A stretch of DNA of 31,784 nucleotides from a virus. The notes beneath the pieces are model-generated. The model was not told where the DNA came from and did no database searches. It saw nothing but the letters and a program-made list of their open reading frames with translations. The position numbers and the translations under genes were made by a program. The DNA is taken from the UHGV virus genome UHGV-0321443; one strand, 5' to 3'. This document shows positions 3,185 through 10,180 of the stretch, one piece after another. Every line of letters begins with the position of its first letter. Within the stretch, counting starts at the first letter, position 1.

Positions 3185-3901
<717 letters not shown>

Positions 3902-3989: not shown

Positions 3990-4199
<210 letters not shown>

Positions 4200-4337: not shown

Positions 4338-4634
4338 ATGGAACAAACAAGTTACAGCAAACTATCACAGCGCGACGTTGATCGCGCAGAAACAGATTTA
4401 CTTATCAACCTGTCAACGCTTACCCAGCGCGGTCTGGCAAAGATGATTGGCTGTCATGAATCGAAGATAAGCAGAACGGACTGGAGATTTATTGCTTCGG
4501 TCTTGTGTGCTTTCGGAATGGCATCAGACATCAGTCCGATTAGCAGGGCTTTTAAGTATGCGCTTGATGGACTCACCAATAAAAAACGCCCGGCGGCAAC
4601 CGAGCGTTCTGAACAAATCCAGATGGATTTTTAA
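4338..4634 (+). CDS. cII: CII-like transcriptional activator (mosaic: divergent N-terminus, lambda-like C-terminus)
   Basis: C-terminal TNKKRPAATERSEQIQMDF matches the lambda CII C-terminus from memory; the N-terminal two-thirds differs; located right of cro and nutR. Confidence 0.75.
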   Translation: MEQTSYSKLSQRDVDRAETDLLINLSTLTQRGLAKMIGCHESKISRTDWRFIASVLCAFGMASDISPISRAFKYALDGLTNKKRPAATERSEQIQMDF

Positions 4635-4655: not shown

Positions 4656-5456
4656 ATGGCAAAAAAACCTACACCAGACCAGGTAAAAAAGATTCGTTCC
4701 GGCATTACCAAGAAAATACGGTTTGAGGTTTTCAAGCGCGATGGCTTCAAATGCCAGTACTGTGGGAGTTCTGCGCCAGACGTCATCCTTCATGTCGACC
4801 ATATCAACCCAGTTAGCAAGGGTGGCGATAACGACATGATGAACCTTATTACTTCTTGCGATAGTTGTAATGGCGGGAAAAGCGACAAACTGCTCAGCGA
4901 TAACTCAATAATGGAAAAGCAAAGGCAGCAACTCCAGGAACTTAATACCAAGCGAGAGCAACTGGAGATGATGATCAAGTGGCGAGATGGTCTTAAGAGC
5001 CTGAAAGACGATGTTGTTGATATTGTCGCTACCAAAATTGACGACTGCATTGCACCATTTACTGTTAATGACAATGGGCGAAAATCTATCAAGAGATGGC
5101 TTCGAATATATAAGCTTGAAGAAATCCTCGATGCGATTGAGATTGCCGCAGATAAAAAACTCACCCAAGAAATAACCCATGAGCTTACTGGTGAATTCTT
5201 TGAGTACATCCCTCGCATAGCAGCGACAAAAAGAAAACCGCCAAAAGAACAAAGGATTCTATACATCAGAGGAATCCTTAAAAACCGCATATATATCAAT
5301 CAAAACCATGTAATGAGTTATCTCAAGGCATGGCTTTCATACGACTTAGATCTCGATGAACTTACTGAGTTTGCGAAAACAGTACCTAACTGGACAACGT
5401 TCAAGGAGTGGGTATCTGAACGCATTCGTGAAGCTCAGGAAGAACTCCCGTACTAA
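4656..5456 (+). CDS. HNH endonuclease-domain protein with an unknown C-terminal domain
   Basis: HNH motif region CQYCG...HVDHINPVSKGGDNDMMNLITSCDSCN; SD GGAG before the ATG at 4656; visibly AT-richer than neighbouring genes. Confidence 0.65.
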   Translation: MAKKPTPDQVKKIRSGITKKIRFEVFKRDGFKCQYCGSSAPDVILHVDHINPVSKGGDNDMMNLITSCDSCNGGKSDKLLSDNSIMEKQRQQLQELNTKREQLEMMIKWRDGLKSLKDDVVDIVATKIDDCIAPFTVNDNGRKSIKRWLRIYKLEEILDAIEIAADKKLTQEITHELTGEFFEYIPRIAATKRKPPKEQRILYIRGILKNRIYINQNHVMSYLKAWLSYDLDLDELTEFAKTVPNWTTFKEWVSERIREAQEELPY

Positions 5457-5467
5457 AGGTGGACAAA

Positions 5468-6334
5468 ATGGCACGTTCAAGAAATATCAAACCAGGCTTT
5501 TTCACCAATGATGAATTAGCTGAGTGTTCTCCATATGCCCGTCTCCTTTTTGCCGGGTTATGGACTATTGCTGACAAAGAAGGGCGGTTGGATGATCGCC
5601 CAAAGAAAATTAAAGCAATGGTACTGCCTTTCGATGATGTGGACTGCAATGATCTGCTTCAGCAGCTTCACAGTCACAAATTCATCAACCGATATCAGGT
5701 AAATGGCGGCTCATATATCCAAATCAATAACTGGAAAAAGCACCAGAACCCTCACTGCAAAGAAGCAGCCAGTGAGATACCAGAACCAGTAGAGAACAAT
5801 AACAGCACCATGCAAGTACAGTGCAAGGACGATAAAGAGGAAGAGAAGGAGGATGCCGAATCACTACAAGTCATTGAAAACAATGGAGCACCAGAAAAGC
5901 ACCATGCAAGTACAGTGCAAGAACCAGTAGAGAACAGTTTAAATCCTGCTGATTCCCTTAACCTGATTCCTGATTCCCTTTCTAACACCCAAGCCGCTGA
6001 CGCGACTTGTGAAGGGGGTGGGGCTGATGTCCATAAAATTTCAAGTCGCTATGCATTCGAAGGAAATATCGTTCGGTTAAACCACAAGGACTACGAAGCA
6101 TGGAAGCGCCTGTATCCGAACATTGACCTGAATTACGAACTGGAAAGGCTGGATATCGAATTTAGCCATGAGAAGCCAAAGAACTGGTTTATCACTGCCA
6201 GCCAGAAACTCAGCTACCAGAACAAGCAGGCGTTATCCAGACCGGTACGCAAGGTTGCTAATGGACTTAAGGCTGAAAACTTTGCCACCAAAGATTACGG
6301 ACAAACTGAAATGCCTTCATGGGCGCAGGAGTGA
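5468..6334 (+). CDS. Replication initiation protein (O-like replisome organiser)
   Basis: N-terminus MARSRNIKPGFFTNDELAECSPYARLLFAGLWTIADKEGRLDDRPKKIKAMVLPFDD resembles phage replication-initiator N-domains; SD AAGGTGG; contains internal direct repeats; followed by the helicase-loader gene. Confidence 0.65.
   Translation: MARSRNIKPGFFTNDELAECSPYARLLFAGLWTIADKEGRLDDRPKKIKAMVLPFDDVDCNDLLQQLHSHKFINRYQVNGGSYIQINNWKKHQNPHCKEAASEIPEPVENNNSTMQVQCKDDKEEEKEDAESLQVIENNGAPEKHHASTVQEPVENSLNPADSLNLIPDSLSNTQAADATCEGGGADVHKISSRYAFEGNIVRLNHKDYEAWKRLYPNIDLNYELERLDIEFSHEKPKNWFITASQKLSYQNKQALSRPVRKVANGLKAENFATKDYGQTEMPSWAQE
5781..5985. repeat. Iteron-like direct repeats inside the O-like gene (candidate replication origin)
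   Basis: gaaccagtagagaaca occurs at about 5785 and 5922; caccatgcaagtacagtgcaag at about 5816 and 5901; tgattcc(c) occurs three times in 5951..5980. Confidence 0.5.
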
Positions 6335-6336
6335 AC

Positions 6337-7182
6337 ATGACGCTGGATGAAAAGATCTCGCAACTGGAGAAAAAACTTGCAGAATTGAGTTCTCCGCCAA
6401 TTGCTATCGAGCATACAGCTGTAGAAATTGGCACTGGCATCTGTGAAAAACATGGTGAGTTTGAGCAGCGTAACCGTTATTCGACAGGGACAATTAAGTT
6501 TGCCTCAAGACCTAGCGAATGCCCGGAATGCATGAGAGATGAGCTTATTCGGCTACAGGCAGAGAAGATTAAAATCGACGAAGAATCACGTAAGCGCAAT
6601 GTCGAGTTTCTGTTGAATAATCTTGATATTCCTGAACGATTCAAGGGTTGCACACTACAGAACTACGAGCCAGTCAACGACGATGCAAAGAGAGTGCTCA
6701 GGGTGTGTCAGGCATACGCCAGCAAATGGCCTGAGAGGTTACAGAAAGGCGGTGGGCTGGTTATGTGTGGAAAGCCTGGTACTGGAAAGAATCATCTTGC
6801 ACTGGCTATCGCCCGGCACGCAATTACGGAACATCAAAGCTCAGCTATTTTCACAACGGCGCTGAAAATTGCCAGAGAATATAAATCAACATGGTCGAAA
6901 AACTCCACCCGCACAGAGGATGAAGTGATCCGACAGTTCACTAAACCTGACCTGCTAATTATCGATGAGGTTGGTGTGCAGTTTGGAAGCGAGGCGGAAA
7001 AGATGATCATGTTCGAAATCATCAACACCCGCTACGAGCGCATGAAGCCAACAATCCTGATTAGCAACCAGAGCAAAGATGAACTTTCGGCATTCATTGG
7101 TGAGCGTGTTATTGACAGGATGAATGATGGCGGCGGATGCACCCTTGCGTTTACATGGGATAGTTACAGGAGCAGATCGTGA
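6337..7182 (+). CDS. DnaC/IstB-like AAA+ ATPase (replicative helicase loader)
   Basis: Walker A GKPGTGKNHLALAIA and Walker B LLIIDEVG; start immediately follows the O-like stop, with SD AGGAG. Confidence 0.8.
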   Translation: MTLDEKISQLEKKLAELSSPPIAIEHTAVEIGTGICEKHGEFEQRNRYSTGTIKFASRPSECPECMRDELIRLQAEKIKIDEESRKRNVEFLLNNLDIPERFKGCTLQNYEPVNDDAKRVLRVCQAYASKWPERLQKGGGLVMCGKPGTGKNHLALAIARHAITEHQSSAIFTTALKIAREYKSTWSKNSTRTEDEVIRQFTKPDLLIIDEVGVQFGSEAEKMIMFEIINTRYERMKPTILISNQSKDELSAFIGERVIDRMNDGGGCTLAFTWDSYRSRS

Positions 7183-7469
7183 CTGGAAAAGAAATCATCC
7201 TGGAATATCTGAAAACTCATGAACAATTCTCCCCACATGAATTAGCTCTGATCACCGGAATACCAAATAACAGAATCGCTCAAGCAGCAAGGCATATGGT
7301 GAAACAAGGGCATTTGAGTGTTGTTGAGCGTAAGTGGAAGACGGTTATTTATGCAAAACGCAAAGTGAAGAAGGAGCCAATTAAAAGAAATCCAGATGGT
7401 ACGGGATGGGGATGTGCAAATCCAATGACGGCGTTTATTAATAGGGCGCTTATGGAGGTAAGGCAATGA
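7179..7469 (+). CDS. Hypothetical small protein (possible winged-helix DNA-binding)
   Basis: Six-frame ORF; GTG start overlapping the DnaC-like stop (GTGA). Not otherwise recognised. Confidence 0.4.
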   Translation: MTGKEIILEYLKTHEQFSPHELALITGIPNNRIAQAARHMVKQGHLSVVERKWKTVIYAKRKVKKEPIKRNPDGTGWGCANPMTAFINRALMEVRQ

Positions 7470-7547
7470 CCATCTACATCACTGAGCTAATAGCAGGGTT
7501 ATCGTTACTAATGGTTCTTACTGTATATATTATTAAGTATATTCTTT

Positions 7548-8159
7548 ATGCGAATAAAAAAACCAATTGATCACGATGAGCTTCTGTCAACATTATCATA
7601 TGACTCAGAAACAGGAATATTTAAATGGCTAAAAACAAATTCAGTAGTAAGAGTAAAAGGTAGTATTGCTGGAGGTGTTAGTGGTGGTTATATATGCATT
7701 AGCATAAATAATGTTTTGTATTATGCGCATAGGCTTGCTTGGTTCTATGTATACAAAAAATGGCCTCCTAAGTTTATTGATCATGTAAATGGGAACAGAC
7801 TTGACAATAGGATTTCAAATCTAAGACTGGCAACAGAGGAGCAGAATGCAAGAAACATTGTAGGTAATAGGTTAAACACATCCGGTGCGATTGGAGTGTC
7901 TTGGGATAAGACAACTGGCAGGTGGAAGTCTTATGTTGGTTATAAAAATAAGACAATATCGTTAGGGTATTTCGATAGCAAAGAAGATGCAGCATTCATA
8001 GCAGCACTAGCAAGAAAGAAACTATATGGAACTTATGCGAGTAAAGCACTTAATTGCGAGCATGAGCTTTTATCTCAATTTAATAATGATGAGGATAAAC
8101 TTGCGGAATATCTTAAGGAAAAATCTAAAAGGACTCGAAAGCGTGTTAAAAAAAGATAA
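7548..8159 (+). CDS. HNH homing-endonuclease-like protein with AP2-like DNA-binding domain
   Basis: HRLAWFYVYKKWPPKFIDHVNGNRLDNRISNLRLATEEQNARN is a typical HNH_3 signature; gene is conspicuously AT-rich; followed by a strong terminator. Confidence 0.65.
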   Translation: MRIKKPIDHDELLSTLSYDSETGIFKWLKTNSVVRVKGSIAGGVSGGYICISINNVLYYAHRLAWFYVYKKWPPKFIDHVNGNRLDNRISNLRLATEEQNARNIVGNRLNTSGAIGVSWDKTTGRWKSYVGYKNKTISLGYFDSKEDAAFIAALARKKLYGTYASKALNCEHELLSQFNNDEDKLAEYLKEKSKRTRKRVKKR

Positions 8160-8191
8160 AGGCCTGCTGGTAATCGCAGGCCTTTTTATTT
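8160..8191 (+). terminator. Rho-independent terminator
   Basis: ggcctgc-tggtaatc-gcaggcc hairpin followed by tttttattt. Confidence 0.7.
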
Positions 8192-8219
8192 GGGGGAGAG
8201 TAATTGGAGGATTTAAGAA

Positions 8220-8435
8220 ATGAGTACGATAGCTGAGCTTGTCAGGGCTAATTTTCGTGAAGAGTTGGCGCGTTGGTATCGGTATCGTTCATCGTCCAGT
8301 TTGCCGCTTGATGAGTTGTATGAGCATTCACCTGCCGCACGACGCTATCCGCGTGACCGTGTTCTTCGGCGGTTGTTCAGACTCAACAATGAGTTTCAGC
8401 GCAACAGAATAATCCGGAGTCTGGATTTAAAGTGA
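8220..8435 (+). CDS. Hypothetical small nin-region protein
   Basis: Six-frame ORF only. Confidence 0.3.
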   Translation: MSTIAELVRANFREELARWYRYRSSSSLPLDELYEHSPAARRYPRDRVLRRLFRLNNEFQRNRIIRSLDLK

Positions 8436-8445
8436 AGGAGTGAGC

Positions 8446-8628
8446 ATGAGCGAGCAAATATTCAGAGAGATTAAGCCACGGTTTTATCGCAAGGTAAGGG
8501 TAGTTTATCAGGACGAAAACAAGACCTGTGCATACGCCATTCATAATGGTCGGTGGTCAGTGTTCGACACCAAAAACTTCGAGAAGAACTTCGAGAGGAT
8601 TAAGGGTGATGAGGAAACTAACATTTGA
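8446..8628 (+). CDS. Hypothetical small nin-region protein
   Basis: AAGGAG SD 5 nt before the ATG at 8446. Confidence 0.35.
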   Translation: MSEQIFREIKPRFYRKVRVVYQDENKTCAYAIHNGRWSVFDTKNFEKNFERIKGDEETNI

Positions 8629-9049
8629 ACTAAGAAGCCCCATCCATCAGCAGAACGCCATTCAAGCTATCCAGCAAATCCTTCCAGACCCAACCAAACC
8701 AATCGTAGTAAGCATTCAGGAACGCAACCGCAGCTTAGACCAGAATCGAAAGCTTTGGGCTTGCCTTGGTGACGTCTCTCGTCAGGTTGAATGGCATGGG
8801 CGCTGGCTGGATGCAGAAAGCTGGAAGTGTGTGTTTACCGCAGCATTAAAGCAGCAGGACGTTGTTCCTAACCTTGCCGGGAATGGCTTTGTGGTAATAG
8901 GCCAGTCAACCAGCAGGATGCGTGTAAGCGAATTTGCGGAGCTATTAGAGCTTATACAGGCATTCGGTACAGAGCGTGGCGTTAAGTGGTCAGACGAAGC
9001 GCGACTGGCTCTCGAATGGAAAGCGCGATGGGGAGACAGGGCGGCATGA
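8609..9049 (+). CDS. ninB: NinB-like recombination protein
   Basis: Translation [57 protein letters not shown]... matches lambda NinB from memory. Confidence 0.8.
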
Positions 9050-9240: not shown

Positions 9241-9319
9241 TTTATCCGGGGCTATATTCCTCACACGCCAGCAAAATCTGGCGTCGGGATTGGCGTCCCG
9301 GATAGAAACCGCGACAGAG

Positions 9320-9342
9320 ACACGCCGCGAGCGTGTTTTTTA
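9320..9342 (+). terminator. Rho-independent terminator in the nin region
   Basis: acacgc-cgcga-gcgtgt hairpin followed by tttttt. Confidence 0.55.
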
Positions 9343-9502
9343 TTGTCGTATGCACGCGCACATCTGAATTATGGTGGGCTGTGTGGGGGCGGAGAGATCC
9401 GCGCCGGTCGGTTTCCCGGTTACGCCAACCCTGCACAGTTCACCGCCAGACGATTGGCGTCGTCGGTGGTGAGTCATTTAGAAACCACCGGAGAGCGTCA
9501 CC

Positions 9503-10180
9503 ATGACAACTCAAATTTCTGTCGAAACTCTTTCCCCGATCACCCACAACCAGATCCCCGTTATTACAACTGAACTTCTTGCGCAGTTATACGGAACAAA
9601 AATCAAAAACATTTCGGATAACTTTCTTAACAACACGACGCGATTCGTGGTAGGGAAGCATTACTTTAAAATTGAAAGGAACGAATTACGCGAGTTTAAG
9701 AACAGACCCGAAACAATCGGGTTAGTTGGTAAAAATGCCCGCTCCCTCATCCTCTGGACAGAACGCGGAGCAGCCCGTCACGCCAAAATGCTCGAAACCG
9801 ATCAGGCGTGGGAAGTGTTCGAAAAACTGGAAGACTGCTATTTCAGCCAGTGCGAGAAAAATACTGGCAAACAAGAGAAGAAGCCCAACGGGCTTTCCGC
9901 AAAAGAAACAGACAGCCTTGTTTGGCTGTGGGATTATGCCAACCGCTCACAGGCATTGTTCCGTGAGTTGTATCCCGCATTAAAACTGATTCAGTCTGGC
10001 TATTCCGGCATATGCCACGACTACGGCTATGAGTTCTCGTATATCATCGGGAGGGCGAGGGGCGTTTTAATTAATCACACGCGGGATATAGATATTTATG
10101 AGCCTGACGGGCCGACGAACCTTCTGGCATGGGAAAGGCTTAAGAACAAAGAGTTGCCGCCTTCACTGCATCGCTACTGA
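9503..10180 (+). CDS. Antirepressor-like protein (ORF6N/Bro-N-type N-domain fused to a P22 Ant-type C-terminal domain)
   Basis: C-terminal roughly 100 aa are near-identical to the C-terminus of the Ant-like protein at 30744..31664; N-terminal domain resembles ORF6N-type antirepressor domains. Confidence 0.55.

Follow-up and report, generated by a model that had tools for sequence, protein, structure and literature searches.

Free-standing homing endonucleases that join an I-HmuI-like HNH_3 nuclease head to an AP2 domain are annotated in lambdoid phages, examples being the 'putative endonuclease' of HK022 and gp34 ('homing endonuclease') of PA28; their genes are intergenic and AT-rich and are present or absent at a fixed site. 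Small HNH proteins are also associated with phage terminases, where those of the HK97 gp74 type function in cos cleavage as accessories to a DNA-processing machine. Homing endonuclease gene (HEG) islands, with a pair of nuclease genes that flank an essential operon, each at a mosaic breakpoint, were described by Barth, Dunham and Seed in 2023 (PMC10448857), and ICP1 Odn joins an HEG-type nuclease to the DNA-binding domain of an initiator and cuts the origin of a satellite (PMC8263062, PMC10448857). Here we consider two HNH genes that bracket the replication genes of UHGV-0321443, a lambdoid Escherichia coli prophage of which a stretch of 31.8 kb (the window) was analyzed. The first, HNH-1, lies between cII and the gene for an O-like replication initiator; the second, HNH-2, lies directly upstream of the tR2 terminator (coordinates are given in Table 1). 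An earlier sequence-only reading had treated both as AT-rich selfish or moron insertions. Our analysis leads us to think, with somewhat more confidence than doubt, that the two genes are unrelated in kind, HNH-2 being a homing-type cassette at tR2 and HNH-1 a conserved accessory component of the replication module.

HNH-2 has the same architecture as the HK022 and PA28 enzymes and we see no structural difference between them. The gene type is therefore already annotated, and what is new, as read from the junctions, is its exact target, the conserved tR2 element, together with the fact that the hairpin is regenerated by the end of the cassette. A literature search found no cleavage test of an HNH_3 plus AP2 endonuclease of this type. 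HNH-1 shares features with several systems. As in HEG islands, the two genes bracket an essential operon and both are located at mosaic breakpoints; unlike the genes of such islands, HNH-1 has no empty site, no shift in composition and no sporadic occurrence within its module, but behaves as a conserved module gene. Compared with HNH proteins of the Cas9, IscB, McrA and Gme types, HNH-1 lacks RuvC, guide-RNA and methyl-reader domains; its C-terminal domain, helical and about 185 aa long, is unique and has no detectable relative. It resembles ICP1 Odn and initiator-nuclease fusions in that a nuclease is genetically tied to the origin-binding domain of an initiator, and in one relative an HNH domain lies inside the initiator itself. 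Unlike Odn, however, HNH-1 is a separate protein that is encoded in the phage's own replication operon and is apparently not aimed at a satellite. Finally, like proteins of the HK97 gp74 type it is a small phage HNH protein that may be accessory to a DNA-processing machine, but it is found in the replication module and not beside the terminase, and it carries the extra C-terminal domain.

The HNH_3/AP2 cassette and its site at tR2

The HNH-2 protein contains an HNH_3 domain (PF13392, E = 8e-16, above the Pfam cut-off) and an AP2 domain (E = 1e-7, slightly under the cut-off), and it matches the HNH endonuclease family phrog_99 (E = 4e-72) and, weakly, I-HmuI (1u3e) and a plant AP2 protein. Thus both a recognized nuclease head and a DNA-binding module, the two parts by which a homing endonuclease gene is identified, are in place, as the sequence-only reading had proposed for this open reading frame (ORF). 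The ORF is intact in the window and all catalytic residues are present. The same reading had called the gene strikingly AT-rich, and a GC scan bears this out; the cassette has a GC content of 0.34 (0.255 at third codon positions, GC3), the minimum among all 660-nt segments of the window (mean 0.492, standard deviation 0.048).

Alignments of occupied and uninterrupted sites define the insertion precisely. The uninterrupted tR2 element reads ...CATCACTGAGCTAATAACAGGCCTGCTGGTAATCGCAGGCC..., and at the empty junction ...CACTGAGCTAATAACAGG is followed directly by CCTGCTGGTAATCGCAGGCCTTTTTATTT. In occupied sites the left junction reads ...GAGCTAATA(A/G)CAGG-GTTATCG... and the right junction reads ...AAAGATAA-AGG-CCTGCTGG..., from which it follows that the insert is 665 bp long (approximately 7498-8162), with edges that are ambiguous by a 3-nt AGG microhomology. 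Comparison with prophages lacking the gene therefore sets the insertion boundaries. The cassette has one fixed point of insertion, directly 5' of the lambda tR2 hairpin, and intact empty sites are found in lambda, Dewey, mEpX1, CP025881 and UTME-6, where the left flank (7466-7497) is identical and leads straight into the hairpin. HNH-2 was absent from Dewey, Louie and mEpX1. In addition, the Ren-like protein encoded just upstream (WP_000145948.1) is identical in genomes with and without HNH-2.

The hairpin and T tract that a terminator scan detects after HNH-2 (8158-8185) had been taken for the gene's own terminator, and this part of the sequence-only reading has to be given up. The lambda gene order is pR-cro-O-P-ren-tR2 (PMC3640518, PMC5869508), and lambda tR2 can be recognized as a GC-rich hairpin plus T tract that comes immediately after ren, or the last replication gene, and before ninB; the hairpin at 8158-8185 is in this position. 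Three empty loci were retrieved in which ren is followed by a 45-bp piece, one of them lambda itself in strain EMG2 (L092), and each time the piece corresponds to the hairpin that separates ren from ninB, at the tR2 position. Judged by this comparison, the hairpin is the lambda tR2 terminator, which is common to lambdoid phages and not specific to HNH-2; it has the same form in prophages without HNH-2, lambda included. The 5' arm of the hairpin is re-formed by the TAA stop codon of HNH-2 together with AGG, which makes the terminator a part of the phage backbone rather than of the gene; because the cassette ends in ...TAA-AGG, the tR2 hairpin stays intact. Of 5426 complete E. coli genomes, 1974 contain the 45-bp element (8156-8203 in the window), at 2914 places in total, and few non-coding pieces of lambdoid prophages are as widely conserved.

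In the same E. coli genome set the cassette occurs at 138 places in 126 genomes with 95-100% identity, all 126 having a place that spans at least 80% of the cassette. Relative to the number of tR2-element places, about 5% of sites are occupied. In a few E. coli records HNH-2 is frameshifted or split into two ORFs, and substitutions between copies suggest moderate constraint (approximately 6 nonsynonymous versus 7-8 synonymous). The occupied left junction was also found in 18 IMG/VR loci, 17 of which reach the hairpin (16 with an identical span and one that differs by a single base), and the sequences flanking these occupied loci fall into at least 6 contexts upstream and at least 7 downstream; empty sites in IMG/VR number at least 127. 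Junctions were precise and identical across all occupied copies examined. At the DNA level HNH-2 is 97.5-98.5% identical to the copies in HK022, PA28, 1717 and other Stx phages, and it follows O/P-ren in PA28, O and a DnaB-type helicase gene in 1717, a DnaB-type helicase gene in ET490 and a DnaC-type module in the window. Polymorphic presence at one fixed position, with close relatives carrying the empty allele intact, is a hallmark of homing genes, and in combination with the exact junctions, the low occupancy, the spread over at least 6 backgrounds, the GC trough and the occasional frameshifts it upholds the view that HNH-2 is a selfish insertion. On these sequence grounds, the assignment of HNH-2 as a free-standing homing-endonuclease-type gene of standard anatomy appears well supported. 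Less in keeping with it are the results of a terminator and promoter scan of the + strand, in which no promoter of its own was detected for HNH-2, and the fact that no Shine-Dalgarno sequence was recognized for the gene. The distribution of HNH-2 could also stem from one ancient insertion that was spread by ordinary recombination via the conserved flanks.

A plausible scenario for HNH-2 is as follows. Since no promoter was detected within the cassette, the gene would be read from pR transcripts before they reach tR2. The product, with its I-HmuI-like HNH_3 head and its AP2 domain presumably contacting DNA, would cut or nick the uninterrupted element (...GAGCTAATAACAGG joined to CCTGCTGG...) of co-resident or co-infecting lambdoid phages, and the cassette would then be copied into the empty site when the break is repaired with the occupied allele as template. 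The cassette would thus target a highly conserved lambdoid non-coding sequence that roughly one in three complete E. coli genomes contains, and would leave the terminator intact. In Stx prophages, among others, the cassette also marks a recombination joint.

Position 7493, 4 nt to the left of the junction, is polymorphic (A/G). It is G (ATAGCAGG) in the window and in 18 of 18 occupied IMG/VR sites and A in one occupied E. coli locus (L002); empty IMG/VR sites mostly have A (at least 120), with G in 7. The polymorphism may be a co-conversion marker, a change conferring resistance to cleavage or a footprint of loss. Two further observations concern relatives of the window. In Stx2 phage 1717 (L004, 4040-6481) an ISEc8 element is inserted inside the cassette leader, 7 nt in and after GTTATCG, so that HNH-2 is cut off from the helicase gene that precedes it. 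Two relatives have a third HNH gene (HNH_3, 175 aa) directly after ninB (L002, 6294-6821; L095, 4871-5398), and no counterpart is seen among the window ORFs listed up to 10 kb, although no dedicated search for one was made.

The HNH gene of the replication module

HNH-1 encodes a protein of 266 aa, with GGAG located 7 nt 5' of the ATG. Residues 33-77 match the Pfam HNH domain (PF01844, E = 1e-13, above the cut-off), and the features of an HNH (beta-beta-alpha-metal) nuclease are all present, namely the CxxC...CxxC zinc pairs, the catalytic D-H and the conserved Asn. The protein is a full-length member of phrog_16986, a family listed as being of 'unknown function' (E = 1e-151, aa 15-263 against profile positions 1-248 of 248). 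There are 1586 homologues at E < 1e-5, and nearly all of the best 120 are about 250-290 aa long with about 89-100% query coverage, the few shorter ones looking like fragments. In 37 diverse members C33, C36, D48, H49, N63, C68, C71, N72 and K75 of the HNH motif are invariant, as are Y203, G206, I207, R211 and W246 in the C-terminal region (motif Y203-x-x-G-I-x-x-x-R211). An AlphaFold2 model (mean pLDDT 82.5) predicts the HNH domain at approximately aa 20-80, a long helix of lower confidence at aa 83-131 and two helical bundles at aa 139-263 (pLDDT > 90). The HNH fold is nearest to those of Cas9, McrA and the Gme/GVE2 nicking HNHs, and in NCBIfam the core is nearest to IscB (E = 1.6e-16) and to Cas9 HNH regions, with scores that lie far below the family cut-offs.

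With the C-terminal region as the sole query, 608 clusters were recovered from a library of 50%-identity representatives. Proteins consisting of the C-terminal domain only (160-200 aa) exist, but these may be fragments; the one context seen, a contig of 1.5 kb that is too short to be informative, has no initiator downstream. Family members of 400-600 aa were considered as possible Rosetta-stone fusions and set aside as uninformative, their C-terminal extensions having no Pfam or PHROG match.

HNH-1 had been described as AT-rich and as inserted between cII and the O-like gene, a place where lambda has no gene. The location is correct, and the slot is indeed variable; relatives such as PA28 and mEpX1 have only about 32 nt between cII and the initiator gene. 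The other parts of the description fared less well. At a GC content of 0.424 (GC3 0.449), HNH-1 is not distinct from its neighbors, which range from 0.41 to 0.47 (cro 0.41, ren 0.42, cII 0.46 and the initiator gene 0.45). As for insertion, among the 5426 E. coli genomes HNH-1 was found in 22 records (18 genomes), and the DNA encoding the N-terminal region of the initiator was found in precisely these records, neither part occurring without the other; no empty site with the same flanks was found in this genome set. cII itself was found in 1909 of the E. coli genomes, and homology stops at query positions 290-298, the cII stop, beyond which a different module follows. Neither an empty site nor a composition and selection regime different from the flanks, both of which are used to recognize homing genes, was therefore found for HNH-1. 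Instead, uniform GC content and conserved presence are what we see for HNH-1 within its module, and not for HNH-2.

The genomic context of HNH-1 is remarkably constant. We surveyed 80 IMG/VR loci with 39-100% identity, 77 of which were not cut by a contig end, and in all 77 an ORF of 204-400 aa begins between -80 and +24 nt from the HNH-1 stop. In the window this ORF starts 12 nt downstream of HNH-1 and encodes the O-like initiator, the N-terminal region of which matches 'replication initiation protein' PHROGs. The same PHROGs are matched by 43 of 63 distinct downstream ORFs (the window's own included), and O-like, DnaD-like and replisome-organizer families are also matched within this set. 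When 62 locus-derived downstream ORFs were clustered by BLAST, 49 fell into one N-terminal family, and the C-terminal regions formed 27 clusters. Full-length homologues with 36-52% identity are encoded by Pseudomonas phages LC3I3 and JBD44, Oenococcus phage Krappator27 and Vibrio phage 219E41.2, directly 5' of a gene for an initiator or a DnaD-like organizer (by PHROGs and Pfam) and often overlapping it. The gene is thus carried by phages of Proteobacteria and Firmicutes, and always immediately 5' of an initiator gene. The cultivable phages Dewey and Louie (PQ850600 and PQ850616) have HNH-1 as well.

HNH-1 is also inherited as part of a larger block. In more divergent loci (L013-L019) the homology runs from the end of cII through HNH-1 and the initiator gene to the DnaC-like gene (window ~4572/4646 to 7166/7188, 73-89% identity), and the end of the DnaC-like gene (7166-7188) forms its right edge; overall, the block is co-inherited from 99% down to 73% DNA identity. 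Within it HNH-1 is the best-conserved segment (78-99% versus 63-89% for most of the rest), except in L013 and L015, where the segment encoding the C-terminal part of the initiator is as well conserved or slightly better. By the Nei-Gojobori method dN/dS is 0.05-0.06 in both domains of HNH-1, the same as in the N-terminal region of the initiator. Taken together, the GC content, co-occurrence, synteny, block inheritance and dN/dS contradict a recent moron or selfish insertion, and this part of the sequence-only reading is mostly not supported for HNH-1. From the comparative sequence evidence HNH-1 is, for the most part, better described as a long-conserved accessory gene of the replication module than as a recent insertion.

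What HNH-1 might do in this module can be sketched as follows. It would be co-transcribed with the initiator gene and is probably translationally coupled to it. Its H-N-N domain, which is catalytically intact by sequence and Cas9/IscB/McrA-like, is most likely that of a nicking or structure-specific nuclease, and the helical C-terminal domain would most likely serve in targeting by binding either DNA or a conserved replication protein. The protein could then act on DNA undergoing replication close to the phage origin or, early in the lytic cycle, on competing DNA, and improve replication or competitiveness. HNH-1 would not be essential, because related initiators work without it. Of these options we favor, with modest confidence, a replication-associated nick near the origin as the most likely one. 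A bolder version, which we offer as speculation and consider rather unlikely in its full form, is that the phrog_16986 family is a dedicated initiation cofactor, namely a nickase recruited through its C-terminal domain either to the replicative helicase or to the complex of initiator and origin. The resulting strand break would prime replication or switch its mode (theta to rolling-circle, for instance), and this would hold for many temperate phages that infect Gram-negative and Gram-positive bacteria. If true, this would be a previously undescribed and widespread component of 'initiator plus loader' modules. In the literature we found no described function for the HNH-1 family in replication modules, but only annotations (e.g. 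in Krappator phages, PMC12403621).

HNH-1 seems to us the more useful lead of the two genes, as it represents an uncharacterized family with hundreds of representative clusters, strong purifying selection and a C-terminal domain with a confidently predicted but unclassifiable fold. Should it take part in replication, a nuclease step would be added to the textbook module; should it be a homing enzyme, it would help to account for the exchange of origin-specificity cassettes between lambdoid phages. In both cases the label 'HNH endonuclease', like the assumption of a selfish insert, gives an incomplete picture of this family.

Alternative explanations

Several observations weigh against HNH-1 being a component of the replication module: (i) the N-terminal family of the initiator is found in 107 phage records but full-length HNH-1 in only about 31; (ii) in HK639, whose initiator N-terminal region is 89% identical, the slot holds an unrelated 134-aa ORF, in Hafnia phage yong1 (86%) it holds a 178-aa ORF annotated as clamp-like and in LESphi2 a 64-aa ORF; (iii) in CM128600 the slot between cII and a Phage_rep_O initiator gene is occupied by a T5orf172 nuclease gene, a pattern typical of homing-endonuclease hot spots; (iv) in L013-L016 the dS of HNH-1 is 0.2-0.5 versus 1.2-1.4 for the adjacent N-terminal region of the initiator and (v) the C-terminal ~185 aa of HNH-1, which the sequence-only reading had rightly noted as lacking an assigned function, gave no match in Pfam, a PDB profile search, BFVD or PADLOC, and so point to no partner, DNA target or known fold; there is also no similarity to the DnaD/DnaB_2 (DDBH2) domain with its YxxxIxxxW motif. 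The slots of HK639 and yong1, which belong to related initiators (86-89% identity), are filled by other ORFs and are not empty junctions, and since related initiators carry other genes in the slot, HNH-1 must be considered accessory. The lower divergence of HNH-1 in L013-L016 is compatible with horizontal spread between initiator alleles, and HNH-1 may have had a homing-type origin. The T5orf172/MUG113 (GIY-YIG-like) gene in question (L095, 1087-1731; E. coli E400634, NZ_CM128600) overlaps the Phage_rep_O initiator gene by 14 nt, so that a second nuclease class uses the same position.

These observations bear most directly on the possibility that the two genes form an HEG island, in which both would be homing endonucleases that bracket the essential replication operon, each cutting HEG-less alleles at its own boundary. 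Cut sites would be located at the cII/initiator junction and in the tR2 element, repair would co-convert the replication module, or the part of it that determines origin specificity, into competing lambdoid phages, and the constant position of HNH-1 would reflect target preference plus hitch-hiking. We regard this as a possible but unlikely account. In its favor, nuclease genes at genetic-exchange boundaries and HEGs flanking essential operons are known in other phages (PMC10448857); HNH-1 is located exactly at a mosaic break, the cII stop, and HNH-2 at a second conserved junction. The E. coli unit of HNH-1 and initiator N-terminal region is more than 99% identical and yet joined to different immunity regions, and both the T5orf172 gene in the slot and the lower divergence of HNH-1 than of the neighboring initiator allele would fit. 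Such an island is harder to reconcile with the missing empty site and GC anomaly of HNH-1, and with purifying selection that is as strong on both of its domains as on the essential neighbor. Moreover, its C-terminal domain is conserved across Oenococcus, Vibrio and Pseudomonas phages, which is unexpected for a domain retargeted to unrelated sequences, and the family is always found 5' of initiators, some of different N-terminal families, with no other context among the 77 loci.

HNH-1 could also be a conflict nuclease that is expressed early and degrades or nicks the DNA of competing phages, satellites or the host, in analogy with origin-directed nucleases and defense HNH effectors, but we consider this improbable. 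The precedent is Odn, with its origin-cutting fusion of an HEG-type nuclease and an initiator DNA-binding domain, yet HNH-1 carries no initiator-like DNA-binding domain by Pfam. A comparable joining of the two functions is seen in E. coli 20AR0300 (NZ_CP195498; L006, 3069-4106), where an allele of the same initiator has an in-frame HNH domain (Pfam E = 5e-13) in its linker. This domain replaces the repeat region, and the initiator gene lies directly downstream of an HNH-1 gene whose product, WP_001549473.1, is the same as in another relative. phrog_5718 likewise unites the initiator N-terminal region with HNH; Bordetella phage initiators called 'HNH endonuclease' proved to be an artefact of the name of this family, the proteins having no HNH similarity, and only the initiator of 20AR0300 has a real in-frame HNH. 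Weak PADLOC matches of HNH-1 to the HNH domains of PtuB and ZorE would also fit a role in conflict, but these and the NCBIfam matches cover only the generic HNH core and lie far below the family cut-offs, and we rejected membership of HNH-1 in a defense system on this basis. Furthermore, conflict genes usually turn over fast, whereas HNH-1 is the slowest-evolving part of the module.

That both genes are decaying remnants of old insertions, kept by linkage and now without function for the phage, is very improbable, for while a few HNH-2 copies are disrupted and the constraint on this gene is only moderate, both ORFs are intact in the window with all catalytic residues, dN/dS of HNH-1 is 0.05 over substantial divergence and every one of the 126 HNH-2 genomes retains a copy that spans at least 80% of the cassette at 95-100% identity.

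Gene map and neighboring features

Table 1. Features of the early region of UHGV-0321443 (window coordinates)
Feature	Position	Strand	Remarks
cI	3185-3898	minus	
cro	3999-4199		early-right region
cII	4338-4634	+	Pfam Phage_CII, E = 8e-35; left mosaic boundary of the replication module at the stop codon
HNH-1	4656-5456	+	two-domain protein, family phrog_16986
O-like replication initiator	5468-6334	+	phrog_17247, E = 5e-183
Direct repeats in initiator linker	5782-5980		candidate iteron-type origin, from repeat comparison
DnaC-like helicase loader	6319-7182	+	Pfam IstB_IS21 and Bac_DnaA; phrog_50; NCBIfam DnaC similarity
Ren/MarR-like gene	7179-7469	+	phrog_1687 and phrog_142 (Ren-like); 5' of the HNH-2 insertion site
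Left half of post-ren/tR2 intergenic element (ATGACCATCTACATCACTGAGCTAATAGCAGG)	7466-7497	+	left flank of the HNH-2 insertion
HNH-2 cassette (665 bp)	7498-8162	+	50-nt leader plus gene 7548-8159 (HNH_3 and AP2)
tR2-type intrinsic terminator (AAAGGCCTGC-TGGTAATC-GCAGGCCTTT plus TTATTT)	8158-8193	+	terminator scan
DUF7301 gene	8220-8435		
NinB	8528-9049		

The acidic linker of the initiator is encoded by DNA with several direct repeats. One of 17 nt is exact (copies at 5782 and 5920), another of 47 nt has 83% identity between its copies at 5784 and 5878, and the shortest, of 11 nt, lies at 5949 and 5970. By comparison with ori-lambda, which lies within O, these repeats are probably an iteron-type origin.

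The repressor encoded at 3185-3898 looks nearly identical to lambda cI, and we take the immunity region to be imm-lambda; together with the non-lambda replication module, this illustrates the mosaic joint at the cII stop. A strong intrinsic terminator is predicted on the minus strand at 4583-4610, antisense to the 3' end of cII, and we assume that it occupies the position of the lambda oop RNA terminator. Since homology to other lambdoid phages stops at the cII stop, any oop promoter or 5' end would fall inside the 5' end of HNH-1.

Further downstream, at 9252-9450, Rfam identifies isrK, C4 antisense RNA and the a1/b1 targets of the latter at 78, 64 and 51 bits, respectively, in each case above the gathering threshold, and a 225-aa ORF (9503-10180) follows directly. 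This region may contain a c4-type antisense immunity element in the style of P1 and P7, located within the nin region.

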